Below, in pieces: positions 1 to 20,820 of a stretch of DNA of 32,000 nucleotides. Position 1 is the stretch's first letter, and the number at the start of each line of letters is the position of its first letter. This stretch comes from Idiomarina loihiensis L2TR (GTDB lineage: Bacteria > Pseudomonadota > Gammaproteobacteria > Enterobacterales > Alteromonadaceae). The DNA is taken from contig NC_006512.1 in the NCBI RefSeq assembly GCF_000008465.1, forward strand, positions 960,001 through 992,000, given 5' to 3'. The position numbers were made by a program, and so were the translations under genes. The notes beneath the pieces were generated by a model. The model made no database searches and was not told where the DNA came from. It saw only the letters and a list, made by a program, of their open reading frames with translations.

Positions 1-176
1 TCTACAACACTCTCATCACTGATAAGAATATCGCTTCCAGGTTCTATACTGATAATTCGAGTCTCACCTTCTTCAAGATAGTAGGAGCTATGATTAACCT
101 CGGCCCGAGCACTAAGGGCGACGAAAAATAACAAAGTCACGACTAAGTAATGTTTGAACTTTACTGAACCTTCCAT
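1..176 (-). CDS. CpaC/RcpA-type pilus secretin, N-terminal fragment (gene runs off the left edge)
   Basis: My own minus-strand translation from the ATG at 176-174 gives MEGSVKFKHYLVVTLLFFVALSARAEVNHSSYYLEEGETRIISIEPGSDILISDESVV... It has a signal-peptide-like start (hydrophobic core, ARA) followed by the pattern of the pilus-secretin N-terminal region. The start overlaps the cpaB stop by 16 nt. The position after cpaB matches tad/cpa loci. At 58 codons it is too short for the ORF track. Confidence 0.45.
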   Translation of the reverse strand, partial: MEGSVKFKHYLVVTLLFFVALSARAEVNHSSYYLEEGETRIISIEPGSDILISDESVV

Positions 177-868
177 GGTTGCACCTTGCTTTGTTTAGAA
201 TCTTGATGCCAAATACTTGCTTGCTCTAAATGACGGCCTCTCGCCCAGACCAACATTGGACTTCCAATAGCTCTTGTAAATGCGGCTACCTTCTCGGGCT
301 CCACCAACAATGTCAGCGAATATGAACCATATCCCTCCTGCAAGCCGTGGATATCGAAAACCTCAATTTCTTCAAATGAAACGTATTGTCTTGAGTTTTC
401 AAAAGACTCCCCGACAAATACAATATCGACCAGATCTCCGACTTTCAGCAGCGCATTGTGGTGGCCTAAATTGTCCGTAGTGACCGTAATAGCGTAGTAA
501 CCGTTAGGCAGAACTTCCGATAAACCATTGTTCTGATTATTCGATAGAACGCGTTCAGAAACCGGTTCACCAGATTTAACAGAACTTCGCAGTTTCCTAC
601 CGATAATCAAATTAGCGGCGCTCTCCAAATACCAATGCTCATTGATAAGTTCGTGCGGATATTTTCGAACCAAGAGGTCGCTTACTTCTAAAATATCCCC
701 GACATTAAGATCTTTGGAAAAAACAACAACACTATCAGCATTTCCTGACGCCTCTTGAAGTCGTCGGGAAGTTTCTTGCTGTAGATATTGATTAATTAGA
801 AAAATCGTCACCATCGAAATTATTGAGCTAAAAATCACGGCAAAAATCCATTTCGCCTTTTTTTTCAT
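161..868 (-). CDS. cpaB: Flp pilus assembly protein CpaB/RcpC
   Basis: N-terminal TM segment (KWIFAVIFSSIISMVTIFLI). SAF-like segment VVVFSKDLNVGDILEVSDL...GRKLRSSVKSGEPVSERVL. RcpC-type C-terminal segment GYYAITVTTDNLGHHNALLKVGDLVDIVF. I trimmed the start to the ATG at 868, which is preceded by AGGAGGAGG and forms an ATGA overlap with the upstream ORF. Confidence 0.75.
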   Translation of the reverse strand: MKKKAKWIFAVIFSSIISMVTIFLINQYLQQETSRRLQEASGNADSVVVFSKDLNVGDILEVSDLLVRKYPHELINEHWYLESAANLIIGRKLRSSVKSGEPVSERVLSNNQNNGLSEVLPNGYYAITVTTDNLGHHNALLKVGDLVDIVFVGESFENSRQYVSFEEIEVFDIHGLQEGYGSYSLTLLVEPEKVAAFTRAIGSPMLVWARGRHLEQASIWHQDSKQSKVQPWKVQ

Positions 869-1056
869 GATCCTCCTCCTGGTATTAGTACTAAATAGCG
901 CCAAATAAAATAATAAAACTCTTTCGCCTCACGACCCACTTCAATTAAGTAGTCAATGAGTGAAAGTTGCTCTTCAACAACAAATAAAATGGTCATTATT
1001 AAGAGAGAGAGCAATAACCACTCTGTCGATGCCTGGCCATTTTGTTGTCTTCTCAT
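865..1056 (-). CDS. Flp-sized mini-pilin / TadE-F-like pseudopilin (63 aa)
   Basis: The N-terminus MRRQQNGQASTEWLLLSLLIMTILFVV has the Flp-type processing pattern: G, four residues, E, an aromatic, then a hydrophobic helix. ATGA overlaps at both ends (1053-1056 and 865-868) argue that it is translated as part of the operon. Confidence 0.5.
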   Translation of the reverse strand: MRRQQNGQASTEWLLLSLLIMTILFVVEEQLSLIDYLIEVGREAKEFYYFIWRYLVLIPGGGS

Positions 1057-1559
1057 AGAACATGAACCAAAATCACATACTCACCTTGCTCGGAGAACAT
1101 TAGGCTTCCCATATCTTCTTTAAAGATCCAAAAGTCATGGGGTTTCTCAATCGATTGAAAAGAATCGATTTTTTGGCTGTAAGTTAATTTTAATACGTTT
1201 TTTATATCTTTGAATTTGAATGTCGATAAATAAACCCAGACCTCTTTTCCATTTTTCCGGTTTTTTGAAATGGCATTAAAAGGCCCGTCAAGCTTAGGCT
1301 TTTCCATATACGGAAGAATTATTTTACTTAAAATCCATGAACCATCATTTCCTTTGAAGAAAGTCCAGTTGTCTTCTCCAATTGGACAGATCCAAAAATC
1401 TCCATGAGGGGCTGGACAGTAGGAATAGAAATCTTCAATAACACTCCAGTCTGGAACATTAGGACTTTGTAAAAAATAAGCAGTAGCCGTCGCATTCTGA
1501 GAAATTGGCATTTCAGACCATTCCCATTTATCAAACCCTGCAGGAATATCAGCAATCAT
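1053..1559 (-). CDS. Hypothetical protein, paralog B of a tandem pair (168 aa, no signal peptide, Trp-rich)
   Basis: Long ORF that is clearly paralogous to 1667-2167. Shared blocks: W.W.E.PIS, PDW, FY.YCP, FW(I/L)CPI, W(T)FF.G..G.WIL and YSQK(I/V)DSFQSIEK..D.WI.KEDMG...FSEQGEYVIL.H.L. Its stop overlaps the start of the next gene (ATGA). Confidence 0.7.
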   Translation of the reverse strand: MIADIPAGFDKWEWSEMPISQNATATAYFLQSPNVPDWSVIEDFYSYCPAPHGDFWICPIGEDNWTFFKGNDGSWILSKIILPYMEKPKLDGPFNAISKNRKNGKEVWVYLSTFKFKDIKNVLKLTYSQKIDSFQSIEKPHDFWIFKEDMGSLMFSEQGEYVILVHVL

Positions 1560-1666
1560 ATACGCACCTTAATTAAAGCTTTACTAAGAATTTGTTACAG
1601 CTAAACCCACAGATTTTTAGAAAAGTAATTTTCCATTTTTATGTAGATAAATCTTTAGTATTCCAG

Positions 1667-2167
1667 TCATAAATAATGTGCCAAAATCACATATTCACCT
1701 TGTTCAGAAAAAACTACGCGCCCCATATCTTCTTTTAATATCCAAACATCATTTTCTTTCTCAATAGATTGAAAAGAGTCTACTTTTTGGCTGTAATAAG
1801 ACATCATTGCCGTTTGCAATGGTTTAAGCGGATATCTAGCTAAATAAATCCATATCTTTTCTCCATTACTTTCATATCCTGAAATTGGAGTAATGGGTCC
1901 CTTTAAAGATTCTTCATGTCCTGGAGACTTAGTCAGTGGCATTAGTATCCATTGTCCGTTTTCTCCCTCAAACAACGTCCATTCAGTATCTTCTATGGGA
2001 CAAAGCCAAAAAATTATTTCCCCTCCGGGACAATATGGATAAAACTGGCTCAACTCTTTCCAGTCAGGAATTTCTGGTTTTCTCAAAAAAAGAGCATCAA
2101 TATTGATGGATGAACTAATCGGTTGCTCAGCCCAGCTCCAGTCCTCTAAAACTACGGGTAAATCCAT
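1667..2167 (-). CDS. Hypothetical protein, paralog A of a tandem pair (166 aa, no signal peptide, Trp-rich)
   Basis: Paralog of 1053-1559 (see that entry). Its start lies 2 nt downstream of the tadE-like stop. I do not recognise the family. Confidence 0.7.
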   Translation of the reverse strand: MDLPVVLEDWSWAEQPISSSINIDALFLRKPEIPDWKELSQFYPYCPGGEIIFWLCPIEDTEWTLFEGENGQWILMPLTKSPGHEESLKGPITPISGYESNGEKIWIYLARYPLKPLQTAMMSYYSQKVDSFQSIEKENDVWILKEDMGRVVFSEQGEYVILAHYL

Positions 2168-2169
2168 AA

Positions 2170-2709
2170 CTATTCCTTTTTTTGAAGTACTTCCTCGGGC
2201 ACGACATCTGGAGATATCGTACCGAAAACTAAATAATCGGAACTAAGCTCTTTAGCCAAAAAAAGTGAGCTAAGCCCATCTTGGATTAATTCTGTTATTT
2301 CTCCCGAGAGTAAGTTATTTACAACTAAAGACGCAGGCCTAGTCGATAGCTCCTCGCTGCTTCTTGCCTGCCAACTATCTGTTAACCTACTCATTGGATA
2401 AAAAGGTTTTTTATCCAGTTTCTTCAACTCTCTTAAGTTTTTCCCTTGGAGCTTTACTGGAAGAAGTCTATTTAGAGGGATAAATAACTTTTCTGTATGT
2501 TTATTTAGCCGATACTCTCCCGATAATTGAGCTCGATCAACATCCATAACCCTGCTCCAAATAATTTTACGAGCCTCAATAAGGTTAACGGTACTGTTGT
2601 TAATCGCAGGTATAAGGACTTGATACAACGACAAGTAAATAGCTAGCAAAATACCAATTGATAACATGACCTCAACAGTAGCTTGACCTTTACATTTAAA
2701 GCGCATCAC
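2170..2709 (-). CDS. TadE-like pseudopilin
   Basis: The N-terminus MMRFKCKGQATVEVMLSIGILLAIYLSLY matches the TadE-type motif (G.a.vE followed by a hydrophobic helix). It overlaps the upstream tadG-like gene by 14 nt. Confidence 0.65.
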   Translation of the reverse strand: MMRFKCKGQATVEVMLSIGILLAIYLSLYQVLIPAINNSTVNLIEARKIIWSRVMDVDRAQLSGEYRLNKHTEKLFIPLNRLLPVKLQGKNLRELKKLDKKPFYPMSRLTDSWQARSSEELSTRPASLVVNNLLSGEITELIQDGLSSLFLAKELSSDYLVFGTISPDVVPEEVLQKKE

Positions 2710-3919
2710 GACCTAAAATTCCTGTTTTATCTTTATAAGATATTGAAGTTAGCTGAGGCTCCCAGAGCGCATTAAACAAGTTATCCGTTTCATAAAGATC
2801 ATCTTTTCTATAGAAGATTTTGTCTGGACGACTAAAATGCGTTTTTGCTTTAGCATATGCAACTTGGTTACTGTCCCCCACTTTTATTATCACCGTATCC
2901 ATGCCCATCTTTAAAAAGTTGCTTAGCCGCATATAGCTAAATTTTTGTGGGTTCGAATTAAACGACTCCATCTGCGCCAAACCAAGTCTGGAAGACATAG
3001 AATTACTTTGAAAGGCTGCACCATAACCAGAGCGATGATAACGTCTTTGCTGTTGTGCTTTAGCGCCCCAGCCTAATGGCAATTGCTCCCGAAAACTTCC
3101 TACGAACCATTTTCGCCCGTGAAGCGAAACGGAATCCAGCGCATGCCAGTCCCAGCCTCCGTTTCTGTTCCTTGATAATTCTGTTCCTCCACGCTTTATT
3201 ATTTTATGAGTGAATACGTCTATCCAGTTATATCCTCTGGATTTGCTGAAGGGATCCAGACTTTTCAGTGTCAACTCTTCTAGTTCTTTTGATTGTCTTT
3301 CATTACTGGTTTTACGGACTTCTGTTTTGCGCCACCAAAGAGTTGGAAATGGCACAACACCACCTCCCTGATACGCTTCCCAACTTAGATCTCCTGAATG
3401 TTTAGAAACGATATCTTGAATAAGAAGTGGTAGCTCCAAGACGAAACTTGCATCTAAAAGTCTCTGTGCCGCTGATATTCCCTGTATCACAGCCGATTGA
3501 AAACGGATTAAGACGCGCGCCAATTGCTGATAAGCTTCCTCGACTCGGTCGAGAATGGTTGATAACACTCTGGTTATTTGCCCGATATAAGGAATGAATG
3601 ACGTTACTGTCTCTAAGTTGTCCGCCGTCCGGTCTAACATAGACATATAGCTCGCTAGACCAACCCACTGAGCTATTGCTACCTGGTTTCCAATAAGTGC
3701 ACGATTTGTTAAAGCTAGAAAATTCATCTGCCGGGACATAGCAACAGCTGCGCTATAAGCCGCGTTATCAGCAACACTTTGCAAGTACCATTGACGCCGG
3801 GCGTGTTTTCCCATGTCCGTTACAGCGAAAAGCAACATCGAAACGAGTAACAAAACCCCGACCATTAAAATCAGGGTTTGTCCTTTTATTCGCGTATTGG
3901 ATTTTCCCAAAGCAATCAT
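2696..3919 (-). CDS. TadG-like Flp pilus assembly protein (Tad N-terminal domain)
   Basis: The N-terminus KGQTLILMVGVLLLVSMLLFAVTDMGKHARRQWYLQSVADNAAYSAAVAMS matches the TadE/G-like pilus-assembly N-terminal pattern (TM helix, D.G, then aaDaAA.Aaa). ATGA overlap with flp (3916-3919). Confidence 0.65.
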   Translation of the reverse strand: MIALGKSNTRIKGQTLILMVGVLLLVSMLLFAVTDMGKHARRQWYLQSVADNAAYSAAVAMSRQMNFLALTNRALIGNQVAIAQWVGLASYMSMLDRTADNLETVTSFIPYIGQITRVLSTILDRVEEAYQQLARVLIRFQSAVIQGISAAQRLLDASFVLELPLLIQDIVSKHSGDLSWEAYQGGGVVPFPTLWWRKTEVRKTSNERQSKELEELTLKSLDPFSKSRGYNWIDVFTHKIIKRGGTELSRNRNGGWDWHALDSVSLHGRKWFVGSFREQLPLGWGAKAQQQRRYHRSGYGAAFQSNSMSSRLGLAQMESFNSNPQKFSYMRLSNFLKMGMDTVIIKVGDSNQVAYAKAKTHFSRPDKIFYRKDDLYETDNLFNALWEPQLTSISYKDKTGILGRDAL

Positions 3920-4194
3920 TTCTTCTTGCCTTGCTCGGTGGCCTCGTCATAATTTCCGAGGTTTACTTCAGTATTTGCCACGGTTCCTGCGCGCCTTGAC
4001 GACTGGCGAGCTCGGTTTAACTGTTGCGTAGATGATTGCCCTGTCATTTCTTGAGCAAGTCCAGCCACCTGGTTACGTATGGACTTACCAAAAAGTGAAT
4101 AGACTCCGATTGCAGCAACAGCAATCAAAGCGACAATAATGATGTATTCCGTCATTCCCTGACCACGAGAACGCCGAGCTAAATGCGTATTCAT
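3916..4194 (-). CDS. flp: Flp/Fap family pilin (92 aa precursor)
   Basis: MNTHLARRSRGQGMTEYIIIVALIAVAAIGVY carries the Flp motif G/xxxxEY followed by a hydrophobic helix. RBS AGGAGGG lies upstream. It is the first gene of the coupled operon. Confidence 0.75.
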   Translation of the reverse strand: MNTHLARRSRGQGMTEYIIIVALIAVAAIGVYSLFGKSIRNQVAGLAQEMTGQSSTQQLNRARQSSRRAGTVANTEVNLGNYDEATEQGKKK

Positions 4195-4290
4195 AATTCC
4201 CTCCTGGCAATAGGCAACACCGTAATTGGCGTTGACGTCAGGAAGTATAGAACGAGTTTTAGAGAGTCAGATCAGAAGTAGCAAATGTCT

Positions 4291-4329
4291 TACTCAATAT
4301 TCAGATATTTATGCATCTGCGTAGAAAGT
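4291..4329 (-). repeat. Orphan copy of the queE 3' end (att-like direct repeat, copy A)
   Basis: tactcaatattcagatatttatgcatctgcgtagaaagt aligns by hand to 5041-5079. The first 30 nt have 1 mismatch, then 3 mismatches, then gaaagt. In the queE frame it reads LSTQMHKYLNIE*, but no gene body is attached. Confidence 0.8.
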
Positions 4330-4348
4330 TTATGGCAGCTCAGATTTT

Positions 4349-4648
4349 TTAGGTGCTTAGTTTACTGTGCCACTTCATTGGCGCTTGTTTTGGATGGAAG
4401 ACGGCTAATATGAGAATAAACTCAGCTTCATCACGATAGAGTATTCCGTGAGGAAATATCTCTAAAGGCCAACGGCGAACCTTATGCTCAAGAATTTGCA
4501 TCGCCAAAGGTTGGTTTGCAGCAGCTTTAACGGCTGTTTCTACTGCACTTTGAAACTTTCTAGCTAAGTCAGGGCTAATTTTCTGATAATAGCTCTTTTC
4601 TCGCCGAATATCTTCGCGGGCAGATGCAAGAAAGCGAACAGGTTTCAA
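4349..4648 (-). CDS. Type II toxin, RelE/ParE family
   Basis: 99 aa. The ARKF...AV..l...P..g....e.....R.w.l..FP..ilYr.....i.IlaV.H pattern is typical of ParE/RelE plasmid-stabilisation toxins. 4-nt overlap with the upstream antitoxin gene. Confidence 0.8.
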   Translation of the reverse strand: MKPVRFLASAREDIRREKSYYQKISPDLARKFQSAVETAVKAAANQPLAMQILEHKVRRWPLEIFPHGILYRDEAEFILILAVFHPKQAPMKWHSKLST

Positions 4649-4884
4649 CGATCATCTGCCTTAAGGTCTTTAAATACGTCCTCAGATGGGATAGCTTGCT
4701 CTTCACCCCGAATATAAGCTTCGTATCGGTTATTTGCTTCAGCCACCCAGGCTTGCTCCACTTGTTGCGAATTCGAGCCAGAACGCTGTTCAAGGCTCTC
4801 CAATAGGTGAACTATCAATCGGGTTTTCTCCTCTTTGGGAAGGGAAAGCGCTTCAGTTTCGAGAACTTCTGCAGATATCGTCAT
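4645..4884 (-). CDS. Type II antitoxin, 'putative addiction module component' family
   Basis: ISAEVLETEALSLPKEEKTRLIVHLLESL...VEQAWVAEANNRYEAYIRGEEQAIPSEDVF matches the addiction-module antitoxin pattern (a.sLp..eR..L...Ll.SL......ve.aW..e...R...). I placed the start at the ATG at 4884, after GAGG; the track ORF begins at a GTG two codons earlier. Confidence 0.8.
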   Translation of the reverse strand: MTISAEVLETEALSLPKEEKTRLIVHLLESLEQRSGSNSQQVEQAWVAEANNRYEAYIRGEEQAIPSEDVFKDLKADDR

Positions 4885-5039
4885 AACCACCTCGGTTAAT
4901 ATTTACTCTATAACACCCTACTATACGAGAAAGATGAAATGAAACCAGCATGCCCCACAAAATATTTCGACGCCTAAACAGCACGCAATATAAACGTTAA
5001 TTATAATGGCATAGATAGGAACATCGCTTTTTTAGCAAG

Positions 5040-5711
5040 TTACTCAATATTAAGATATTTATGCATCTGCACGGAAAGTCGCCAGTTGCGCGCTATGCAG
5101 GTTTTCATCGCAAGCTCGGTGGCGCGTGGCCGCTGGCTTATTGGTTGCAGGCAAATAATGGCGTCTGCTTTGGGTGGGCAGCGTTCTAGTAAGGAATCTA
5201 GCGCGTCTATGTGCTTTTGCATGGCTATGGGGTGCTTTATTTCATTAGCGCGTGCCATGCAGTCGGGGCGCACTAAATAACCACCGGGCATATCCAGCTT
5301 GGGTGATACCGTTACCCAGGTGCTGTCGGTCACTTTTAGCTCAAAGGTACCGCTGGTTTCTATTTGCAACTGGTAGCCTTTGGCTTCTAAGGCTTTGCCA
5401 AGCGGCAGTAAGTCAAACATAGCGGGTTCACCGCCGGTTATCACTACATGTTTGGCGGAGTAACCTTCTTGTTCAAAACGCGCAATAATGTCCTCGGCGG
5501 TCATTTCTGACCATTTTGCAGAGGCTTCGGTTTTTGCCATTAATGCGTCTATGCTTACCTGGTCGGTGGGGTTGGTTTCCCATGTGTGCTGGGTATCGCA
5601 CCAGGGGCAGCCCACAGGACAACCCTGCAAACGCAGAAAAATAGATGGCACGCCGGTAAAGGTGCCCTCGCCTTGCAAGGTTTCAAAAATTTCGTTGATG
5701 CGGTAAGACAT
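5040..5711 (-). CDS. queE: 7-carboxy-7-deazaguanine synthase QueE (radical SAM)
   Basis: INEIFETLQGEGTFTGVPSIFLRLQGCPVGCPWCDTQHTW closely parallels the N-terminus and Cys cluster of E. coli QueE. The start is trimmed to MSYRINE, which is preceded by GGAAG. Confidence 0.9.
   Translation of the reverse strand: MSYRINEIFETLQGEGTFTGVPSIFLRLQGCPVGCPWCDTQHTWETNPTDQVSIDALMAKTEASAKWSEMTAEDIIARFEQEGYSAKHVVITGGEPAMFDLLPLGKALEAKGYQLQIETSGTFELKVTDSTWVTVSPKLDMPGGYLVRPDCMARANEIKHPIAMQKHIDALDSLLERCPPKADAIICLQPISQRPRATELAMKTCIARNWRLSVQMHKYLNIE
5041..5079 (-). repeat. queE 3' end (att-like direct repeat, copy B, within the intact gene)
   Basis: tactcaatattaagatatttatgcatctgcacggaaagt encodes LSVQMHKYLNIE*. 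It is the partner of 4291-4329. Confidence 0.8.
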
Positions 5712-8971: not shown

Positions 8972-11286
8972 ATGTCGCCTTTAGCCGTGTAAAACTGGTT
9001 GTTTTCGATAATACCGGGAGCAAAGCTGTCCACGCCAATGGCGGTTAAACGAAGCTCTTCAGTTTCTGCCAATTTTGCAGCCGTGTCTGCATCCACCAAA
9101 CCTTTTTCCAAAGCCACATCGGCAAGCTCTTTACCATTGAGGTTAGAGGATAATTCACCGCGTTTTTGCGCTTTACGCAGCGTTTTGTAAACCGACTTCA
9201 TTTCCAGCATAGAAGTAAAAGCTTTTTCCATGTGCCCTGTTGCATCACCAATACTGTCTTTCCAGTAACACAGGAAAGTATGGCGGTCACGAGTAACGCC
9301 CGGCTCCATCATGCTGACACTGATATCCTGTAAAATTTCATCAGACGGCTTTTTGAAGTGATTGCCCAGCGGGAATATCAAAATACGCATTACCCAAGCC
9401 ATAAAGCGATTCGGGAAGTTATCAAAAAAGCCATAGAACGCATCGGCAATGCTGTATAAATGGTGCTTCAGCGCATAATGAACGTAAGGTAAGTCGGCTA
9501 CCTGACGGCCTTCGTCTTCAAAGCGCTTCAGTACTGCCGAGCCCATATATAAATGACTCAAAATGTCACCTAAGCGGGCTGAAATCATTTCTTTACGTTT
9601 CAAATCGCCACCCATCATCAGCATAGAAATATCTGATGCTAAAGCTAAACCACGGCTCATACGACCCAGCTTACGATAATAATGAGCAGTTTCACCACTC
9701 ACCGGAGACTCGCCAAAGCGTGCGCCACTTAAGCCCAGCCATAAGCTGCCAAAGACGTTACTGGCGGCAAAACCGATATGCTTCATCAGCAGGCCGTCAA
9801 ACTCACGCATACCCTCATCTTCATTAGGGTTAGCCGCAGCTTTCATTTCTTTAAGTACATAGGGGTGACAACGCGTTGCACCCTGACCAAATATCATCAG
9901 GTTACGGGTCAGAATATTTGCACCCTCAACCGTAATAGACACTGGCGTCGCCATGTAGGCGTGGCCTAAATAGTTATGCGGACCTAATTGAATGCCCTTA
10001 CCGGCGTGAATATCCATTGCATGCTCTAATACCTCACGACCCATTTCGGTCATATGGTATTTAGTCATGGCAGTTACTACTGAAGGACTCTGTCCCTGAC
10101 ATAAAGCCGAAATGGTCAGACGACGCATAGATTCCAGAATGTAGTTGGTGCCACCAATTTTACCCATTGATGACTGCACACCTTCGAACATACCAATTGG
10201 CATGCCAAATTGCTGACGCACATAAGCGTAAGCACCGGTCATACGCTGAGTTACGTGGCCTGATGCAGCAGCCAGTGCCGGCAGTGAAATACCACGCCCT
10301 GCCGACAAACATTCAACCAGCATACGCCAGCCTTTACCGGCATAGTCTGAACCACCAATAATCCATTTCAGCGGAATAAAGACGTCTTTACCATAGGTTG
10401 TACCGTTCAGAAACGCCTGGTTCAGAGGAAAATGACGGTCGCCAATTTCAACACCTTTGTGCGATGTCGGAATTAACGCACAAGTAATGCCAATTTCTTT
10501 CTTATCACCTAATAAGGCATCCGGGTCGTAGAGTTTAAATGCCAAACCCAGAACCGTTGCTGAAGGCGCTAAGGTAATATAACGCTTCGACCAGTTAAGA
10601 CGAATGCCAACAACTTCTTCACCCTCGTGCTCGCCTTTACAAATAATACCTTCATCCGGAATAGCACCAGCATCTGAGCCAGCTTCCGGTCCGGTTAAGG
10701 CAAAACACGGAATGTCGGTACCATCAGACAGGCGTGGCAACCAATAGTCTTTTTGCTCTTTGGTACCATAATGAGTTAGTAACTCGCCCGGCCCCAGGGA
10801 GTTTGGAACCATAACAGAGACCGCAGCACTGATAGAACGACTGGCAATTCGCGAAACAATGTAGGAGTTTGCCGCCGGGGTAAAGTCGAGGCCGCCGTAA
10901 TCTTTACCAATAATCATGGCGAAGAAGCGTTCTTTACGCAGATAATCCCAAACTTGTTTAGGTAAATCGCGATCCTGCTGAACAATTTTAAAATCATCCA
11001 GCATGTCCAGCAGTTTAGCCAACTGGTTGTCGACAAACGCCTGTTCTTCGGCAGTGAGTTTAGGTTCAGGTACATCCAGCAGTTTTTGCCAGTCCGGACG
11101 TCCGCTGAACAGCTCTCCGTCCCACCATACATCGCCCGCTTCCATGGCCTCACGTTCTGTGTCAGACATAGGCGGCAAAATGCGTTTAAAAATAGCAAAA
11201 ACGGGTTTAGTCACCAGGCTGCGACGGATATCTCCGACTGCAAACACCAGTACCACTAAAACCACTAACAGAATAAAAATTTCCAT
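8947..11286 (-). CDS. fadE: Acyl-CoA dehydrogenase FadE (long, membrane-anchored type)
   Basis: 779 aa with an N-terminal hydrophobic anchor. Blocks PxMSDTEREAMEAGDVWWDGELFSG and FALTGPEAGSDAGAIPD, plus the overall length, match E. coli-type FadE. Confidence 0.9.
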   Translation of the reverse strand: MEIFILLVVLVVLVFAVGDIRRSLVTKPVFAIFKRILPPMSDTEREAMEAGDVWWDGELFSGRPDWQKLLDVPEPKLTAEEQAFVDNQLAKLLDMLDDFKIVQQDRDLPKQVWDYLRKERFFAMIIGKDYGGLDFTPAANSYIVSRIASRSISAAVSVMVPNSLGPGELLTHYGTKEQKDYWLPRLSDGTDIPCFALTGPEAGSDAGAIPDEGIICKGEHEGEEVVGIRLNWSKRYITLAPSATVLGLAFKLYDPDALLGDKKEIGITCALIPTSHKGVEIGDRHFPLNQAFLNGTTYGKDVFIPLKWIIGGSDYAGKGWRMLVECLSAGRGISLPALAAASGHVTQRMTGAYAYVRQQFGMPIGMFEGVQSSMGKIGGTNYILESMRRLTISALCQGQSPSVVTAMTKYHMTEMGREVLEHAMDIHAGKGIQLGPHNYLGHAYMATPVSITVEGANILTRNLMIFGQGATRCHPYVLKEMKAAANPNEDEGMREFDGLLMKHIGFAASNVFGSLWLGLSGARFGESPVSGETAHYYRKLGRMSRGLALASDISMLMMGGDLKRKEMISARLGDILSHLYMGSAVLKRFEDEGRQVADLPYVHYALKHHLYSIADAFYGFFDNFPNRFMAWVMRILIFPLGNHFKKPSDEILQDISVSMMEPGVTRDRHTFLCYWKDSIGDATGHMEKAFTSMLEMKSVYKTLRKAQKRGELSSNLNGKELADVALEKGLVDADTAAKLAETEELRLTAIGVDSFAPGIIENNQFYTAKGDIRKAAVKD

Positions 11287-12090: not shown

Positions 12091-13584
12091 TTAGTGGCGC
12101 CAATAATGACGATGGAACAAAATAAGTACCGTCATAATTTCCAGACGGCCTGCCAGCATAGCAAAAACCAGCAAAAGTTTAGCTCCCCCGTCAAGGCTCG
12201 CGAAGTTTCCTGCCGGACCAATAATGTCGCCTAATCCAGGTCCAACGTTGCCCACCGCAGAAGCCGCACCTGATATTGCCGTCATAAAATCCAGATCAAA
12301 TAATGATAACCCCAATGCAATAACCGCTATCAGCAAAAAGTACATAAAGCAAAAAGCGACCATTGAGCCAAGTAATGAGTCATTTACCCGACGCTCCTGA
12401 TAGGTCTGGACACTGACCAGGTTAGGATGAATTAACTGGCTGAACTGTTTTCTTAATAACAGCTGCGACAACTGAAAACGAAAAATTTTCATACCGCCGG
12501 AAGTTGAGCCGGTGCAGCCGCCAATAAACATTAAGTAGAAGAAAGCCATTAACGACCAACTTCCCCAGTTTCCGTAATCTTCGGTTGCGTAACCGGTTGT
12601 GGTCACAACTGACACGACATTAAATGCCGTATGCATTAATGCATCACCAAGTTCCCGTCCTTTAACTATCTGAACCAGGGTAATCAACGCAATAGCAATG
12701 AGAAGGAAGGTAACAAAAGCCCGTACCTGGCTATCTTTCCACAATGGTCCAAAGTCACCTTTTACAAAGCGAATGTAGAGCACAAAAGGTAAGGCGCCTG
12801 CCACCATAAAAATAGTGCCCGTTATCACCAAAAATGGTGTATTAGAAAAATGCCCAAAAGACGCATCGTAGTTAGAGAAGCCTGCTGTCGCTATGGTGGT
12901 CATGCCGTGCACAAAGGCATCAAAACTGCCCATGCCGCCAATTAAATACAAGCTAATAACGGCAGCCGTCAGAATGAGGTAAACCCGCCCTATTGCCAAA
13001 ACCATATGGCTGGAACGTGGCATAAATTTACCCGACATATCGGAAGATTCAGCCTGGAACAGGCGCATGCCGCCAACTTGCAAAAACGGCAAAATGGCCA
13101 TAGCCATAACGATAATTCCGATTCCGCCCAACCATTGCAACATAGCCCGCCACAACAGAACACTCGCGGGCAAGTCGTCCAGCCCCGAGATAACGGTGGC
13201 TCCGGTAGTTGTAATGGCTGACATGGCTTCAAACCAGGCACTGGAGAAGTCCAGATAAGGTCGAGCAAAAATAAACGGCAAGGTGGCGAATAAGCTGGCC
13301 GAAACCCAGCATAAGGAGGTCAACAGAAAAACTTGTCGTGCCCGCAGTTTGGCCTCACCCGCTGGCTGCAAAAACAGAAGCAAACCAAAAACCAGACCCA
13401 GGCTGGATAATGTCAGGTAAGTCCACTGCTCTTTTTCGCCACTAACCACCGCCATAACAAAGGGCGCCAGCAAGGCGATAGAAAGCAATGCAATGAGCCC
13501 GCCAATGGCTTTCAGCAATAGCTTAATAGCCTGACGCTTATCAAGCGGAGTCTGACGCAATGACTGGCTTGCCTGCATTGACAT
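12091..13584 (-). CDS. trkH: Trk-type potassium uptake protein TrkH
   Basis: Polytopic protein with selectivity-filter-like repeats TTTGATV, ATAGFSN, TTTGYAT and NVGPGLG. The segment LQWLGGIGIIVMAMAILP parallels E. coli TrkH. Confidence 0.88.
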   Translation of the reverse strand: MSMQASQSLRQTPLDKRQAIKLLLKAIGGLIALLSIALLAPFVMAVVSGEKEQWTYLTLSSLGLVFGLLLFLQPAGEAKLRARQVFLLTSLCWVSASLFATLPFIFARPYLDFSSAWFEAMSAITTTGATVISGLDDLPASVLLWRAMLQWLGGIGIIVMAMAILPFLQVGGMRLFQAESSDMSGKFMPRSSHMVLAIGRVYLILTAAVISLYLIGGMGSFDAFVHGMTTIATAGFSNYDASFGHFSNTPFLVITGTIFMVAGALPFVLYIRFVKGDFGPLWKDSQVRAFVTFLLIAIALITLVQIVKGRELGDALMHTAFNVVSVVTTTGYATEDYGNWGSWSLMAFFYLMFIGGCTGSTSGGMKIFRFQLSQLLLRKQFSQLIHPNLVSVQTYQERRVNDSLLGSMVAFCFMYFLLIAVIALGLSLFDLDFMTAISGAASAVGNVGPGLGDIIGPAGNFASLDGGAKLLLVFAMLAGRLEIMTVLILFHRHYWRH

Positions 13585-13588
13585 AGTT

Positions 13589-14446
<858 letters not shown>

Positions 14447-15718
14447 TTAACTACCGACAACTCGTAGAATCTGTCCGGCGAAATACGCCATATAGGTTCC
14501 AAGCGCATAACCCATTACCGCTAATAATACACCAACCGGCGCCAATGACGGATGAAAAGCTGAAGCAACAACCGGTGCTGACGCTGCGCCACCCACATTA
14601 GCCTGACTGCCCACAGCCATATAAAATACAGGAGCACGAAGCAGTTTAGCCACGAATAACATAAGCCCAGCATGGATCAGCATCCAGATAGCACCAATTA
14701 AGAAGTACTTAGGCGCCTCTACTATTTTGGTTACGTCCATATGCAGGCCAATGCTGGCCACCAGAATATAAACAAAAACGGAGCCTATTTTTGACGCCCC
14801 GGCGGCCTCCAAAGAACGAGCCCGGGTAAAAGAAAGTGCAATACCGCCAGCAGTGGCTAAAACAATGACCCAGAAAAACAGACTGTCCAGGCTGAACTTA
14901 CTTAGTGCAGGATAATTCGTTGCTATTCCCGGAGCTATCCAGTCAGCCAGCAAATGCGCTAACCCGGCAATACCGAAACCAACAGCCAGAATCAGCATTA
15001 AATCACGTAAGCTCGGGTTTCTGACATGCTCGGCTTCATACTGCTCCACTTTACGACGAATGTTGTCGATAGCGGATGTATCAGCGCCGGTGCGGGCATC
15101 AATTTTCTTAGCATTTGCTGCCATATAAAGCAGTACAGCCATCCATAAGTTGGCAACAATAATGTCTACTGTCACCATGGCTGAGAAAATATCACCGCCG
15201 ACTTCATAAACTTCTTTCATGGCAGCCTGGTTTGCGCCGCCACCAATCCAGCTTCCGGCAATGGTTGTCATGCCACGCCAAACAGCATCAGGGCCCGCAC
15301 CGCCAAGCATTTCAGGGAATATGGCAGACACCAGTAACAAGGCTATAGGTCCGCCAATGACAATACCAAAAGTACCGGTTAAAAATAGAATAAGAGCCTT
15401 TGACCCAAGACCCATTACGGCTTTTAAATCCAGACTTAGGGTAAGCAATACCATACAGGCGGGTAACAGATAATCCATTGCTATATCTGTTACGGCAGTT
15501 TGATTTCCGTCGACAATACCAAAAGTATTCAGCAAAGACGGTATGAAATAGCAAAGCAGTAAAGCCGGAACAAAACGATAGAATTTCTTGAAAAAAGGAT
15601 GCTCGCTGCTATTAGTGTAAAATACAAAACCAAGGATGGTCAGCAATAAACCAATAACAACCCCATCGTTAGTGATTAAGGCATTCGTTTCCGAAACAAC
15701 AGACTCAGGCGCTAACAT
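14447..15718 (-). CDS. Polytopic inner-membrane protein (DUF819-like by recollection)
   Basis: 423 aa with about 12 hydrophobic segments. It is tightly packed between sirB2 and kdsA (15- and 12-nt gaps). The family assignment is from memory only. Confidence 0.65.
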   Translation of the reverse strand: MLAPESVVSETNALITNDGVVIGLLLTILGFVFYTNSSEHPFFKKFYRFVPALLLCYFIPSLLNTFGIVDGNQTAVTDIAMDYLLPACMVLLTLSLDLKAVMGLGSKALILFLTGTFGIVIGGPIALLLVSAIFPEMLGGAGPDAVWRGMTTIAGSWIGGGANQAAMKEVYEVGGDIFSAMVTVDIIVANLWMAVLLYMAANAKKIDARTGADTSAIDNIRRKVEQYEAEHVRNPSLRDLMLILAVGFGIAGLAHLLADWIAPGIATNYPALSKFSLDSLFFWVIVLATAGGIALSFTRARSLEAAGASKIGSVFVYILVASIGLHMDVTKIVEAPKYFLIGAIWMLIHAGLMLFVAKLLRAPVFYMAVGSQANVGGAASAPVVASAFHPSLAPVGVLLAVMGYALGTYMAYFAGQILRVVGS

Positions 15719-15733
15719 AGGTACTCCTTTTAC

Positions 15734-16108
15734 TTAACCGGCAATAAGTGCTTGTTTGGACACAGCCACATGCAACAGGAAGGCTATCCAGCCGCAAGCG
15801 CCAATAAAACCAAGCCAGCGCGCACCAGCTGTTTTTCCTTTCATAGCTAAGACACCAAAGCCAATATAAGCAATAACACCTATGACTTTATCAGTTAACC
15901 AGGGAACCTGAATTGGGTACATGCTTAACGTCACCATGATACCCACCGCACTGAGCAACAATAAGGTATCGTTAACGTGAGGGACTATCTTCAACCACTT
16001 CTTTTTTAATAAAGGTGAGTCAAGAAGCAGAAGCACAAAACGGAATAAAAAAAGGCTGATCGAAATCAGCACAAATAATACATGCAGGTGTTTAAAAGCA
16101 GCGTACAC
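15734..16108 (-). CDS. SirB2/YchQ family membrane protein
   Basis: 124 aa with 4 TM segments and the N-terminus KHLHVLFVLISISLFLFRF. It sits between prmC and kdsA, as ychQ does in E. coli. Confidence 0.7.
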   Translation of the reverse strand: MYAAFKHLHVLFVLISISLFLFRFVLLLLDSPLLKKKWLKIVPHVNDTLLLLSAVGIMVTLSMYPIQVPWLTDKVIGVIAYIGFGVLAMKGKTAGARWLGFIGACGWIAFLLHVAVSKQALIAG

Positions 16109-16132
16109 AGTAACCTCTTATTTTTAATTTAA

Positions 16133-17605
16133 TTAAATGGTTCTCAACTCAGGCAGGGATTTTATAACAACATCAAGAAACTTAGGTGAATAATAGCGGC
16201 CCCGTTCATCTTTCAGGCGTACCGCAATATCGCTGTCACTAATGCCACTTTCCCACCAATCCAGCAACTGCTCGGTCAACAGAAGAACCTGAGTGCTTAT
16301 CGCGATATCCGAGCCTTGTTTACCTTCGGGCAAACCCAGGCCGTCCCAGCGCTCCAGTCTTTCAATAAGTGCCCTGTGCGCATTTTGTGTTGCTTCATGC
16401 TCACCGTGCCCCAACGCTCGTAATGAGCGGGCAACTCGTTGCTGACACGTGGTTTCTACCGCTGCAGCCGCATCTGAAGCGCAATTAAGCAACGGCCGCG
16501 CTTGCGCAAATAAAGACCAGGCCAAAGCCGTTGTCTCTGCGTCTTCTGCCGCAACTTTTTGAGCTACAGCATATGCCAATCGAACTTCGCTGTTTTGCTC
16601 CAGAATGCCGTTAAAATGGCTGGCATGGTGCAGCATAAGTTGATCGGCTAAACGCGCCAGAAACTGATCGGAATCTTCCAGACAAACCACGTTATCCTGT
16701 GCCAGTTGTACATTTTCAGAAAATAGTTGAAGCACATGGTGATCATCGGCCGTAAGTGCTCTGGATAAGCCGCCGATAAACAAAACAGAACCGTGCGACC
16801 GGCAATGACTGCGGCAATATAACAATACGAAGTCGTCACCATAATACGAGCCATGATTCGCAATAACATGCTCTAACTCGGCTAAGGCCTTTGACGGAAT
16901 AACTGAACGTAAAGTCTGACCAACACAAACCCCGGAATCTTCTCCATGAGCGGCTAACACTTTATAAGATGAGCCGTCTTCATTGGAAGTAGCATACAAG
17001 GTTTGTTTGGCACCGCCGATTACCCAGCTCAACTGCTGCACTAAACCATCAACAAAACTGTTCATTGGTTGCAGAGCATAAAGATTAGCCGAAGCGGCGA
17101 TGATTTTCTCAAGCCCGTGACGACTTTGATCAATGGACATGATATCGCGGTACGAACGCAGCGATGACATTACTGCAGTAAAGAGTTTCTGTGCAGTGAG
17201 TTCGGTTTTGGATTTGTAGTCGTTGATGTCGTAGTTAACGATAACCGTGCGTTCAGGTGCCTGACCCGGCTGCCCTGTCCGCAAAATAATACGAGTAAAG
17301 TGGTTGTCGGCTTCTTCCCGAATATAACGCGCTACCTGCAGTCCGGCATCATCGGTTTCCATAACAACGTCCAGCAGTAATATAGCTGCGTCAGGATGCT
17401 CGTCAATTAACCGCTTTGCTTCTTCACCAGAAAAAGCACTGTAAAACTTTAAACCACGACCTAAAAAATTAAAGTCGTTGAGTGCCAGTTTGGTTACCGC
17501 ATGCACCTCTGGTTCATCATCGACAATCAGAATTTTCCAGTATTCTGTCGGTAATTTTGTGGTTTGCTGGCTGGTTTCGTCAGCAAACATAAACTGATTG
17601 CTCAT
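16133..17605 (-). CDS. Response regulator: REC domain, central domain (DUF3369-like by recollection) and a degenerate HD-GYP-like C-terminus
   Basis: REC motifs ILIVDDEPEV and AILLLDVVM (acceptor Asp). The C-terminus has ERLERWDGLGLPEGKQGSDIAISTQV, which aligns to the HHERWDGSGYP.GL.G..IPL.ARI block of HD-GYP domains but with the His and Tyr residues replaced. Confidence 0.8.
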   Translation of the reverse strand: MSNQFMFADETSQQTTKLPTEYWKILIVDDEPEVHAVTKLALNDFNFLGRGLKFYSAFSGEEAKRLIDEHPDAAILLLDVVMETDDAGLQVARYIREEADNHFTRIILRTGQPGQAPERTVIVNYDINDYKSKTELTAQKLFTAVMSSLRSYRDIMSIDQSRHGLEKIIAASANLYALQPMNSFVDGLVQQLSWVIGGAKQTLYATSNEDGSSYKVLAAHGEDSGVCVGQTLRSVIPSKALAELEHVIANHGSYYGDDFVLLYCRSHCRSHGSVLFIGGLSRALTADDHHVLQLFSENVQLAQDNVVCLEDSDQFLARLADQLMLHHASHFNGILEQNSEVRLAYAVAQKVAAEDAETTALAWSLFAQARPLLNCASDAAAAVETTCQQRVARSLRALGHGEHEATQNAHRALIERLERWDGLGLPEGKQGSDIAISTQVLLLTEQLLDWWESGISDSDIAVRLKDERGRYYSPKFLDVVIKSLPELRTI

Positions 17606-17607
17606 TA

Positions 17608-18453
17608 TTAGTCTCTCCCCGCCCTGGCTTTTTTCCCGCCGGTAACTCGGTCTACCCTAGCATAATCCTGCCAACGGTTAACCTTTTTATAACCACTTTT
17701 AAACAGTAGCTCTGCAACGCTATCAGCCTGTTGCCATCCCTGCTCAAGTAGTAACCAACCCTGGTCTGCTAAATGGTTGTTGGCTTCTTTTATAATAGTC
17801 TCTATATCGGCTAAACCGTTATTTTCCGCAATTAACGCCGTCTGGGGCTCAAATCTGACATCTCCCATACTCAAGTGCGGATCGCCTGCATCAATGTATG
17901 GAGGGTTCGATAAAATCAAGTCAAATTTAAGAGACTTTGGCACAGATTGAAACCAGTTGCTGCACAAAATTTCAACATTTAAGCCTAAAGCCTGACTATT
18001 CCGGCGTGCCAGTTCCACCGCATCGCCGCTTTTATCGCACGCCCAAACTTGCCAGCCGGGACGTTCCGACTTTAATGCCAAGGCGACCGCTCCCGTACCC
18101 GTGCCTAAATCCAGTACGCGGGCATTTTCAGGAAGCTCAAGACTAAGCGCCGCTTCAACCAGCGTTTCAGTATCGGGACGGGGAATTAACGTGCTGGCGT
18201 TTACTTCAAGCATCAATGACCAAAACTCGCGGCGACCAGTGATATGAGCCACGGGCTTGCCTTTCTGCCGGGCTAAAATACATTCCTCATAATGCCGTTG
18301 CTGCTCTTGTGTCAGCGGCTTTTCCGGCCAGGTCATAAGGTAAGTTTTTTCTTTATCCAGCACAAAGCAAAGTAAGGCAGAAACATCCGCAGCAGCATCT
18401 TCACTCTGCTCTAACTGCTCCCGCCCCCATTTTATGGCTTGCTGCAGCGTCAT
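17608..18453 (-). CDS. prmC: Release factor glutamine methyltransferase PrmC (HemK)
   Basis: SAM motif [13 protein letters not shown] and catalytic motif NPPY (LILSNPPYI). 4-nt overlap with prfA. Confidence 0.92.
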
Positions 18454-19544
18454 TGCTGTCCTTCAGACAGAGCCGCCAGTTGATCCGCCTGATGCTCAGT
18501 AATAATGGCATCCAGTATCAAATCGATATCGCCGGTAAGTACTTCATCTAACCGATACAGCGTCAGGTTAATGCGGTGGTCTGTTACCCGGCTTTGCGGG
18601 TAATTATAAGTGCGAATGCGCTCTGAACGATCACCACTTCCTACCAAATTACGGCGGGTACTGTCTTCTTCTGCCTGACGTTTTTCATCTTCCAGACGTT
18701 GTATTCTTGCCTGTAAAACCGACATGGCTTTAGCCCGGTTTTTATGTTGCGAACGCTCTTCCTGACATTCAACAACCACACCAGTTGGTATGTGGGTAAG
18801 ACGAATAGCAGAATCGGTTCGGTTAACGTGCTGACCACCAGCACCCGAGGCGCGGTAAGTATCGACACGTAAGTCCGCCGGGTTAATTTCAACGGCCTCG
18901 GCTTCTGGAATTTCCGGTAACACGGCAACGGTACAAGCTGAAGTATGAATACGCCCTTGCGATTCAGTTTCAGGAACACGCTGCACCCGATGCCCACCAG
19001 ACTCAAACTTCATGCGCCCGTAAACACCATCACCACTCATGTGAGCAATAATTTCTTTATAACCGCCGTGTTCGCCATCACTGGCACTGACAATATTGAC
19101 CTTCCAGCCATTTTTTTCAGCGTAGCGGCTATACATACGGAATAAATCGCCGGCGAATATCGACGCTTCATCACCGCCAGCTCCGGCCCGAATTTCCAAA
19201 TAGCATGAACGATCATCGTTCGGGTCTTTAGGCAGCAACAGAAGTTGTAGGCGGTTTTCCAGCTCTTCTTCGGCTTTTCTTGCCTCTTTTAGCTCTTCTT
19301 CCGCCATTTCGCGCATTTCAGCGTCATCATCTTCAGCCATATCTTTTGCAGCTGCCTGATCATCCTGATTCTGGCGGTACTCTTCAAAGCAACCAACCAC
19401 CTCTTCTAATTGAGAGTACTCACGCGATAATGAGCGAAAACGGTTTTGATCACTGATCACATCGGGCTCACCCAATAAAGCTTGCACTTCCTGATAACGC
19501 TCAACTAACCCTTCTAGTTTGCGTTCAATGGATGGATTCAACAT
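18450..19544 (-). CDS. prfA: Peptide chain release factor 1
   Basis: GGQ motif (SGAGGQHVN), the RF1-type P.T tripeptide (RVPETES) and a 364-aa length. Confidence 0.95.
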
Positions 19545-19548
19545 GTTT

Positions 19549-20820
19549 TTATTTGCCTTTTGATGAGTCAGAGGATGGCTCTGACCAAAGTTGTTGCAAA
19601 ACGGCCAGCGTATATTGGTCGTTATTTTCGCCGGCAGATTTCAATAAGCTTGTCGGTTTATGCGTTAACTGCTGCACCAGCCTGTGACTGAATCGTTGCA
19701 GCACTTCGGCCGGGTCTTTGCCCTGCTCTATTTGCGCTAATGCTTTTTTTAACTGCTCGTCAGCTAGTGTTTTTGTGTGCGTACGGTACTCCCGCACCAG
19801 CTCTACACTATTCAGGGATTTCAGCCAGTCATTAAACTCTTTCGTTTGCTGCTGAATAATAACCTGAGCTTCACGAGCTGCCTGCTCACGGTTACGAATA
19901 TTTTCGCTAATAATACTTTGAAGATCGTCAACTGTATAAAGGTAAGCGTCATCGAGTTCATTAACCTGCTCTTCAATGTCCCGCGGCACAGCCAGATCAA
20001 TTAACAGCATGGGTCTGTGGCGACGCTTTTTCAGTGCTTTTTCAATGCTGCCTTTGCCCACAATAGGCAAAGTACTGGCGGTTGAACTGACGACAATATC
20101 GGCCTGCGGTAATAACTCTGATAACTCAGACAAGCTGTGAGCCGTTGCCCCGACACGTTCAGCCATTTCGCTAGCTCGTTGCAGAGTCCGGTTTGCCACC
20201 AGAATTTCGGTTACGCCTTGTTGTTTCAAATGCTGAGCAACCAGCTCGGAAGTATCACCGGCTCCAATCAGCAGCACCTTCGATTTCTGCAAATTAGCGA
20301 AAATATGACGCGCCATAGAAACCGCAGCATATGCAACCGAAACCGCGTTTTGACCTACCGCGGTTTCATTTCTAACGGTTTTTGCTACACGAAAGGTTTG
20401 CTGAAATAAGCGTTCAAGGATACCGCCCACCGAGGCCTGACGTTTTGCGGCCTGATACGCTTGCTTCACCTGCCCCAGAATTTGTGGCTCGCCAAGCACC
20501 AGTGAGTCTAAACCACTGGCAACCGACATAAGATGAGTAATGGCCTGCTCGCCCTGAAAGTGATAATGATGATTTTCCAGCGCATTTGGTGCCAATTTGT
20601 GGAAACCGGTTAACCAGCCCAGGAGCAAGTCGCCAGACACTTCACCCCGGCAATATAGCTCGGTTCGGTTACAGGTAGAGACGATGACGGCTTCTTCAAC
20701 ACCTTGAAGATTACGTACAGCCTGCAGCGCAGCATCAAGCTGTTCAGCACTGAACGCAACTTGCTCGCGCAAATCGACTGATGCGGTTTTATGATTAATT
20801 CCGAGAGCTGAAATGGTCAT
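19549..20820 (-). CDS. hemA: Glutamyl-tRNA reductase HemA
   Basis: [23 protein letters not shown] (catalytic Cys) and the NADPH motif [12 protein letters not shown]. Its position upstream of prfA matches enterobacteria. Confidence 0.95.

Follow-up and report, generated by a model that had tools for sequence, protein, structure and literature searches.

Analysis of a 32,000-nucleotide stretch of Idiomarina loihiensis L2TR (contig NC_006512.1, positions 960,001–992,000; hereafter the window, whose positions serve as coordinates unless a locus is named) showed two tandem genes of an orphan protein family on the minus strand, inside a Tad-like (type IVc) pilus operon. The family is undescribed, and no match to a known family or fold was detected. 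The two open reading frames (ORFs), given the working names X_B (1667..2167, 166 amino acids) and X_A (1053..1559, 168 amino acids), are paralogs, and the family that they represent (X) is an integral part of the operon, confined to Idiomarina and close relatives. The first X gene belongs, together with the C-terminal part of a TadG-like gene (TadG_C) and a TadE-like gene, to a polymorphic block that is exchanged by recombination between near-identical strains. X was tentatively assigned a role in the cytoplasm, as a chaperone or loader that is matched by allele to the minor pilins of the pilus tip. The minus-strand order of the locus is Flp, TadG-like, TadE-like, X_B, a 107-nucleotide spacer, X_A, mini-pilin and CpaB/RcpC.

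Sequence properties of X_A and X_B

Both ORFs had been pointed out in an earlier note made from the letters of the sequence, and were confirmed on the minus strand. Alignment of X_A with X_B by BLASTP gave 46% identity and 62% positives over 165 residues without gaps (E 3e-59), which is far beyond chance and in line with the 40–50% identity that the note had estimated by eye. The ratio of nonsynonymous to synonymous substitution rates (dN/dS) against orthologs was 0.08–0.15 for X_B and 0.05–0.17 for X_A, indicating that both are real coding genes under purifying selection. Orthologs in Idiomarina were 73–99% identical to X_B, and those of X_A 55–96%. In the loci L017 and L018, between which no cassette exchange has taken place, X was the fastest-evolving gene of the operon (dN 0.17 vs. 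0.03–0.11 for the others; dN/dS 0.12).

The motif blocks that the note had listed for the two proteins extended to the family: P, WxW, L, C..W.C and W.L, both Cys included, were invariant in 28 distinct domain sequences (P4, W10, W12, L28, C46, W54, C56, and W73 in X_B numbering), and these residues make up an N-terminal core that is rich in Trp and includes a CX9C pair. Conservation also extended to the motif D-[LI]-P-x5-W-x-W at the N-terminus. The C-termini, described as near-identical, were the part in which X_A and X_B are most alike, since the last 45 codons showed 67–77% amino acid identity vs. 30–47% elsewhere, and a third-position identity of 0.63 vs. approximately 0.4 in the rest of the genes. 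Across the family, per-position variation was highest at residues 81–130 (mean pairwise identity 0.24–0.35), while both ends were more conserved (0.51).

The prediction that the proteins are leaderless, without a transmembrane helix or a prepilin motif, also held. The maximum Kyte-Doolittle mean over 19 residues was 0.58 for X_B and 0.93 for X_A, compared to 2.1–2.9 for the four pilin-like proteins of the locus (Flp, TadG-like, TadE-like, and mini-pilin), and neither X protein has a signal peptide, hydrophobic segment or membrane helix judging from its sequence. The N-termini, MDLPVVLEDWSW and MIADIPAGFDKW, lack the G-x4-E prepilin motif. A leader added by an upstream in-frame start is impossible, as the reading frame of X_A meets a stop after 3 codons and the 25 codons available to X_B include no start codon. 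The isoelectric points of X_B (4.4) and X_A (5.0) were acidic compared to those of the TadE-like (9.2) and TadG-like (9.8) proteins.

Searches for sequence and fold relatives

The statement that the family is unknown was upheld by every type of search. Searches of Pfam, NCBIfam, PADLOC and PHROGs with X_A and X_B, and of Pfam with all 19 aligned members, gave nothing significant; matches to nspC (0.014) and phrog_9723 (0.0066) were dismissed as noise. Pilin families of Pfam and NCBIfam did not match X at E values up to 1, and a sequence search of the PDB, with single sequences and with a profile, returned nothing below E 0.6. Comparison of the X profile with that of the TadE-like proteins by hhalign gave a probability of 0.1%, the comparison with the DUF192 protein of the operon was negative, and the profiles of the N- and C-terminal halves of X revealed no internal sequence repeat. 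A word-indexed search of 5.8 billion clusters found 13 + 6 clusters, consisting only of Idiomarina "hypothetical proteins" or unnamed metagenome proteins. With the family profile, an exhaustive HMMER search of 1.84 billion representatives yielded 20 hits, of which P0024 and P0031 were rejected as spurious, being repeat proteins without relation to X. When a single genome was scanned for each of 185,579 species, 10 loci came up, eight titled Idiomarina and two in metagenome-assembled genomes (MAGs) of unclassified Pseudomonadota. No match to X_A or to the TadG-like protein was found by tblastn against plasmids, and the Idiomarina literature found was silent on the family.

A first AlphaFold model, built from 14 sequences, reached a predicted local distance difference test score (pLDDT) of 67; the second, of X_A and with 19 sequences, reached a pLDDT of 80.3 (five models at 77–80) and a predicted template modelling score of 0.58. 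The model predicts two subdomains, the first (residues 13–79) with the order beta-beta-alpha-beta-beta-beta and the second (95–167) with the order beta-beta-alpha-beta-beta-beta-beta. Foldseek searches with the AlphaFold models, twice against the PDB and against BFVD, gave no match at E ≤0.001. Weak matches to TBP, AlaX-M, YbjN, PCNA and TM1622/DUF192, with template modelling (TM) scores of 0.2–0.36, were not relied on.

Distribution, operon position and copy number

Loci were reached via X itself, via TadE-like proteins in metagenomes, by exact look-up of distant members (21–31% identity) and by the genome scan; they are numbered L001 onwards. All family members with readable context (more than 20 distinct loci) lay between the TadE-like and mini-pilin genes of one Tad-like operon, and the same slot was occupied in all eight of the HMMER hits that were looked up. 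The operon was situated between queE and smpB wherever its flanks were readable. Every recovered locus contained one to four X domains at this fixed position, and in the loci examined X was never found outside the Idiomarina-type operon or next to a toxin domain. The earlier note had made its idea of a pilus accessory dependent on such linkage to Tad loci, and because the linkage proved to be constant that idea stands. The piggy-backing cargo that it had also considered is unlikely, as X has long belonged to the operon, has been retained there by vertical descent and was never found elsewhere.

The tight gene junctions described for the window were confirmed in the sequence. Upstream, the stop codon of the TadE-like gene (TAG, 2172–2170) is followed after 2 nucleotides by the start codon of X_B (ATG at 2167); downstream, the stop codon of X_A (TGA, 1055–1053) overlaps the start codon of the mini-pilin gene (ATG, 1056–1054) as ATGA. 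Among the other loci the upstream junction was either of the same stop–2 nucleotides–ATG type or an overlap of 11–31 nucleotides, and the downstream junction was ATGA or a longer overlap, save for a 20-nucleotide gap in L033. A Shine-Dalgarno sequence preceded each X start; for X_A it is AAGGTG, located in the spacer between the two genes (1560..1666, minus strand). A sigma-70-like match (TTGGCA-16-AATACT) was present at 1684–1657, though the count of such matches was not above shuffled expectation. Fusion of X_A to the mini-pilin over the ATGA overlap was rejected, given that there is no slippery site and that this junction ranges from a 31-nucleotide overlap to a 20-nucleotide gap.

The two genes had been taken for a pair, a description that did not hold for the family, in which the copy number is 1, 2, 3 or 4. 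A single copy was found in I. abyssalis, I. aminovorans, I. ramblicola, I. tyrosinivorans, and others, and two copies in the window, L005, I. rhizosphaerae, and I. loihiensis-type loci. The I. zobellii type has three (a fused two-domain gene of 355 amino acids and one single gene) and the I. piscisalsi type four (a single gene, a fused two-domain gene and another single gene). In a tree of the domains, clade A comprised the copy next to the mini-pilin, including X_A, and clade B comprised X_B and the sole copies of I. abyssalis, HP20-50, and I. aminovorans; further clades were restricted to loci with three or four copies. At least 11 X types at ≤60% identity were distinguished within one genus. 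The fused genes at L001:8895-9962 (355 amino acids) and L003:8902-9966 (354 amino acids) have a linker of approximately 20 residues, and their domains were only 60% and 41% identical between strains with 99–100% identical backbones. In a 1-kb metagenome contig (L023:606-971), X was split over two reading frames, reflecting either a sequencing error or a pseudogene.

The recombining TadG_C–TadE–X cassette

The loci L003 and L004 showed 97–100% nucleotide identity over the operon and its flanks, except for a sharp block (L003:6900-8898) at 42–76%. This block starts approximately 100 codons into the TadG-like gene, spans the whole TadE-like gene and stops exactly after the first X. Three such alleles were present among strains with 99–100% identical backbone proteins. 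Between alleles, protein identity was 62–68% for the C-terminal part of TadG, 60–64% for the TadE-like protein and 38–42% for the first X, vs. 98–100% for the N-terminal part of TadG, Flp, the last X, the mini-pilin and CpaB. The last X copy was thus conserved, up to 100% identical, in strains whose first copies differ, and the N-terminal part of TadG was 99–100% identical across strains with different cassettes. Synonymous divergence (dS) in the cassette was 1.4 for the C-terminal part of TadG and beyond calculation for the TadE-like gene and the first X, indicating old alleles that were moved by recombination.

The corresponding parts in the window, all on the minus strand, begin with the conserved left anchor of the cassette, which encodes the N-terminal ~100 residues of the TadG-like protein (3620..3919) and contains the helix region of Tad PF13400, matched by the protein at 2e-08 in a Pfam scan. 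The variable left part of the cassette encodes the C-terminal ~300 residues (2696..3619). The TadE-like pseudopilin (2170..2709, 179 amino acids) has a G-x4-E prepilin motif, of which G8 and E13 are invariant in the alignment, and one N-terminal hydrophobic helix. X_B, the first family copy, adjoins it and is the cassette-linked one, and X_A is the last copy. The G+C content of the TadE-like, X_B, X_A and mini-pilin genes (865–2709) was 0.36–0.38 vs. 0.47–0.52 in the housekeeping flanks, which is consistent with an often-exchanged region for a surface structure.

After correction for the backbone, the identity of the first X was correlated with that of the C-terminal part of TadG (Spearman 0.76) and of the TadE-like protein (0.66), while the correlation with the N-terminal part of TadG, Flp, the mini-pilin and the last X was approximately 0. 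TadE-like proteins were 41–46% identical when the adjacent X clades differed, even at 92% backbone identity, and 58–79% identical when the clade was the same. The type of the TadE-like protein follows the X type across many lineages, including pairs in which the C-terminal part of TadG does not.

In the window itself, the backbone and X_A were nearest to I. ramblicola (X_A 85%, TadB 89%), but the TadE-like protein was only 41% identical to that of this species; the TadE-like protein (59–64%) and X_B (73%) were nearest to the abyssalis group. Given these split affinities, X_B most likely arrived with the current TadE-like allele, and X_A is most likely the resident copy, older and lacking its original partner. 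A mosaic patch was also seen in the C-terminal part of the TadG-like gene (3151–3450, minus strand), where DNA identity to the I. loihiensis-type locus L029 dropped to 0.76–0.80 between flanks at 0.90–0.99.

The B-type single copies of I. abyssalis, HP20-50 and I. aminovorans have an A-type 3′ end (…WIFKEDMGRLMFSEQGEYVILVH.L), and over their last ~20 codons the distance to A-type genes is no greater than that to X_B, or is smaller. On account of this shared end, the conserved 3′ end of X appears to be the right-hand recombination anchor, which would account for the closely similar C-termini of X_A and X_B, and unequal crossing-over there appears able to delete and to create tandem copies. These single-copy genes (L007, L009 and L010, each 10001–10498) looked chimeric, with a B-type body and the last 20–25 codons of A-type, the outcome that unequal crossing-over would give if a B and an A copy lay in tandem.

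Possible roles of X

Operon membership, the leaderless acidic soluble character of the proteins, their tight junctions with pilin genes and their co-inheritance were observed, and from these we infer a mechanism. X would remain in the cytoplasm, where its variable middle (residues ~81–130) would recognise the cognate basic tip minor pilin, chiefly the TadE-like protein and perhaps the TadG-like protein's C-terminal domain, before or during membrane insertion. With its conserved ends, X would contact a partner that is itself conserved, for instance the mini-pilin, the platform or the ATPase. X may thereby serve as an allele-specific chaperone or loader and prime tip assembly in a machine without TadZ. 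Counted in support of this partner role were the strict linkage, the coupling at the junctions, purifying selection, complementary charge, co-variation within the cassette, the variable middle with conserved ends, the lack of TadZ/CpaE and the precedent of TfpX/TfpY/TfpZ. The assignment is nonetheless only tentative, because several observations weigh against it. X did not resemble any chaperone or adaptor family in sequence or fold (Pfam, NCBIfam, PDB, and Foldseek); the parts of TadG and TadE that co-vary with it lie in the periplasm or outside the cell; the co-variation could be linkage alone between the two recombination anchors, TadG_N and the 3′ end of X; a CX9C pair that never varies would more typically form a disulfide in a protein that is exported; and the X copies vary from one to four at a constant number of pilin-like clients. 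Moreover, we know of no type IV pilin that needs a dedicated cytoplasmic chaperone.

The possibility of linkage alone leads to a different explanation, in which X is a hitch-hiker: a fast-evolving gene that serves some other function, for example as a regulator or as a localisation factor resembling TadZ, and makes no direct contact with the variable pilins. The anchors on either side (TadG_N on the left, the 3′ end of X with the mini-pilin on the right) would by themselves make the intervening genes co-vary, X is overall under purifying selection, and the operon has no TadZ. However, the right boundary falls exactly after the first X while later X copies are 98–100% identical, the TadE-like protein tracks the X type in many lineages even where TadG_C does not, and a cytoplasmic protein of conserved function would be expected to be homogenised like its neighbours, all of which makes this explanation somewhat unlikely. 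X_B could also be produced as a C-terminal extension of the TadE-like protein by −1 frameshifting and be exported with the pilin. An in-phase A_AAA_AAG heptamer, a dnaX-type slippery motif, does lie at 2176–2182 (minus strand), a single codon ahead of the stop of the TadE-like gene, and a shift into the −1 frame would lead into X_B with no stop in between. The heptamer was present only in the window, L005 and L006, though; other loci lack a slippery site, some have stops in the −1 frame or a +1 relation, and all keep a Shine-Dalgarno sequence and their own start. Because the heptamer is confined to close relatives of the window, a TadE–X frameshift fusion was rejected as a general mechanism; for X_B it is highly improbable, and the heptamer is probably incidental.

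Two further explanations link X to contact between cells or place it outside the cell. In the first, the variable tip (the TadG-like protein's C-terminal domain and/or the TadE-like protein) would harm neighbouring cells, the adjacent X would neutralise its cognate tip, and extra downstream copies would be orphan immunities against the tips of other strains. Like CdiA-CT/CdiI, SUKH and Imm modules, X is small and acidic and lacks a leader, diverges more than any other gene in a cassette swapped between near-identical strains, has numerous types within one genus, and occurs in tandem arrays, as fused two-domain genes and as orphan-like conserved downstream copies; as in CdiA-CT/CdiI, the variable block begins at a sharp junction inside an exported protein. 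Contact-killing Tad-type pili are, furthermore, known in Myxococcus (PMC12075869). By contrast, Pfam searches (E up to 0.5) of eight TadG-like and TadE-like variants found only Tad and N_methyl and no toxin domain, and the TadG-like protein had no sequence match in the PDB. No SUKH/SMI1_KNR4, Imm-family, CesT-like, DUF1795 or PADLOC immunity or defence model matched X (Pfam of 19 members, PADLOC, and Foldseek). No locus lacks X, and its coupling to the pilin genes on either side is what a part of the machine would show, the TadE-like gene intervenes between TadG_C and X, and the saturated dS of the cassette points to old alleles rather than to a demonstrable arms race. The resemblance to immunity arrays drawn in the earlier note is somewhat strengthened by the hypervariability of X and by its orphan-like extra copies, but not by any toxin domain in the TadG-like or TadE-like variants scanned, and an immunity role is considered unlikely. 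In the second explanation, X would leave the cell by a non-classical route and dock, in the manner of TcpF and CofJ in type IVb pili, on the minor pilins of the tip, forming the most exposed and hence most variable part of an "adaptable tip". It is indeed the fastest-evolving gene of the operon and the most diverged of the cassette, its invariant Cys pair and many conserved Trp recall disulfide-bonded binding domains, the conserved N-terminal motif might act as a signal, and X is encoded among minor pilin genes in a copy number that varies like interchangeable tips (PMC12075869). Yet Sec, Tat, lipoprotein and prepilin signals are all lacking and an upstream start is impossible; the N-terminal motif is retained in the internal domains of fused proteins and modelled mostly as beta-strand, suggesting that it is structural and not a signal. 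To our knowledge, no type IV filament system exports a leaderless cytoplasmic protein, and export of X was judged quite unlikely. A reading that joins both, with the TadG_C–TadE–X block as the specificity module of a polymorphic contact-dependent Tad-pilus system in marine Idiomarina and X as immunity determinant or exported leaderless partner, is rather improbable.

Comparison with known systems

The closest parallel to the partner role of X is found in the TfpX/TfpY/TfpZ cassettes of Pseudomonas aeruginosa type IVa pili, in which the accessory genes are passed on with the pilin alleles and their products are thought to be primers of assembly (PMC11841053). In both cases an allele-specific accessory gene without a recognisable domain lies directly downstream of a variable pilin gene, and its product is proposed to make contact with pilins and to prime assembly while staying outside the fibre itself. 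TfpY-like (FimB-like) proteins, however, have three N-terminal transmembrane helices and a periplasmic domain (PMC11841053), while X has no such helix, and they pair with the major type IVa pilin, whereas the partners of the X cassette are the TadE-like and TadG-like minor pilins and Flp is 98–100% conserved. Being membrane proteins with periplasmic domains, TfpX/TfpY/TfpZ do not include X as a family member, and the parallel implies no likeness of the proteins themselves.

Tad tips (TadE/TadF/TadG; the KilL/M/N "Tips" of Myxococcus) have recently been recognised as exchangeable modules (PMC12075869). X is likewise encoded among tadG-like and tadE-like genes, the tip genes are variable and the C-terminal domain of TadG is the variable module; X differs from the tip proteins (PF07811, PF13400, and PF16964) in lacking an N-terminal hydrophobic helix and a G-x4-E site. 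TadZ/CpaE, a ParA/MinD-type ATPase, differs from X in that X has no P-loop ATPase match in Pfam. With the class I chaperones of type III secretion and the Eag (DUF1795) chaperones of type VI secretion, X shares the character of a small acidic cytoplasmic protein that co-varies with a basic exported neighbour, but not the fold or sequence (best Foldseek TM 0.26–0.36, E >0.01). We know of no description of dedicated secretion chaperones for type IV filament systems. TcpF and CofJ (cited in PMC12075869) are soluble proteins that are secreted via type IVb pili and dock on a tip minor pilin. Similar to X, they are non-pilin soluble proteins encoded in a pilus operon and tied to a tip minor pilin. 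Both carry Sec signal peptides, of which X has none.

The remainder of the operon and its surroundings

The other operon genes in the window are also on the minus strand. The Flp-type major pilin (3916..4194, 92 amino acids) has the motif G|QGMTEY, which is conserved in all loci, and gave weak Pfam matches to Flp_Fap and Class III signal. The mini-pilin (865..1056, 63 amino acids) has one hydrophobic helix and the motif G|QASTEW; the stop codon of its gene overlaps the start of the CpaB/RcpC homolog (161..868). The latter likely starts at the ATG at 868, giving 235 amino acids like its orthologs, and matches TIGR03177 (7e-19) as well as SAF and RcpC. The G-x4-E prepilin motif was conserved in Flp, the TadE-like protein and the mini-pilin.

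The rest of the operon lies past the left edge of the window and was read in the 99%-identical locus L005 from an Idiomarina sp. MAG. There the operon (L005:7974-16898), to whose first part window positions 161–4194 correspond, continues with genes for a secretin, a TadA-type ATPase, TadB, TadC, a DUF192 protein and a TPR protein. Neither TadZ/CpaE nor an A24 prepilin peptidase was found in the L005 operon, although four proteins have G-x4-E motifs. All loci that were read as far as the end of the operon had the DUF192 (PF02643) gene, and the more distant loci had one additional gene of 117–127 amino acids.

A ParE toxin (PF05016) and Unstab_antitox (PF09720) pair was located at 4349–4890 (minus strand), between queE and flp. 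The window, L005 and the I. loihiensis-type loci L028–L030 have this pair, and L001–L004, L015 and L017 do not; in L003 the operon instead bears a HipA/HTH pair at its far end. The position of these pairs at the operon edges indicates that its borders collect toxin-antitoxin modules. An Rfam scan of window positions 1–5100 gave no match. The idea that equal-sized ORFs at 12091–20820 arose by duplication was rejected, as these are unrelated housekeeping genes.

Implications

Tad pili are widespread machines for adhesion and colonisation. The Tad-type pilus itself, variable tips and allele-linked pilin accessory genes are known concepts. What is new is a leaderless family of orphan fold that is obligatory, and expandable to four copies, in a Tad-like operon without TadZ, together with its co-variation with tip minor pilins and the sharply bounded TadG_C–TadE–X cassette. 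The narrow range of the family, Idiomarina and close relatives, limits the generality of the finding, while the natural strains represented by L001, L003, and L004, which differ almost only in the cassette, make the question of its function testable. If X is a cognate cytoplasmic loader, the handling of pseudopilins prior to their insertion can be allele-specific. If X instead confers immunity or is exported as a partner of the tip, Tad pili would be added to the contact-dependent systems that are polymorphic, by a mechanism that would be undescribed for type IV filaments.

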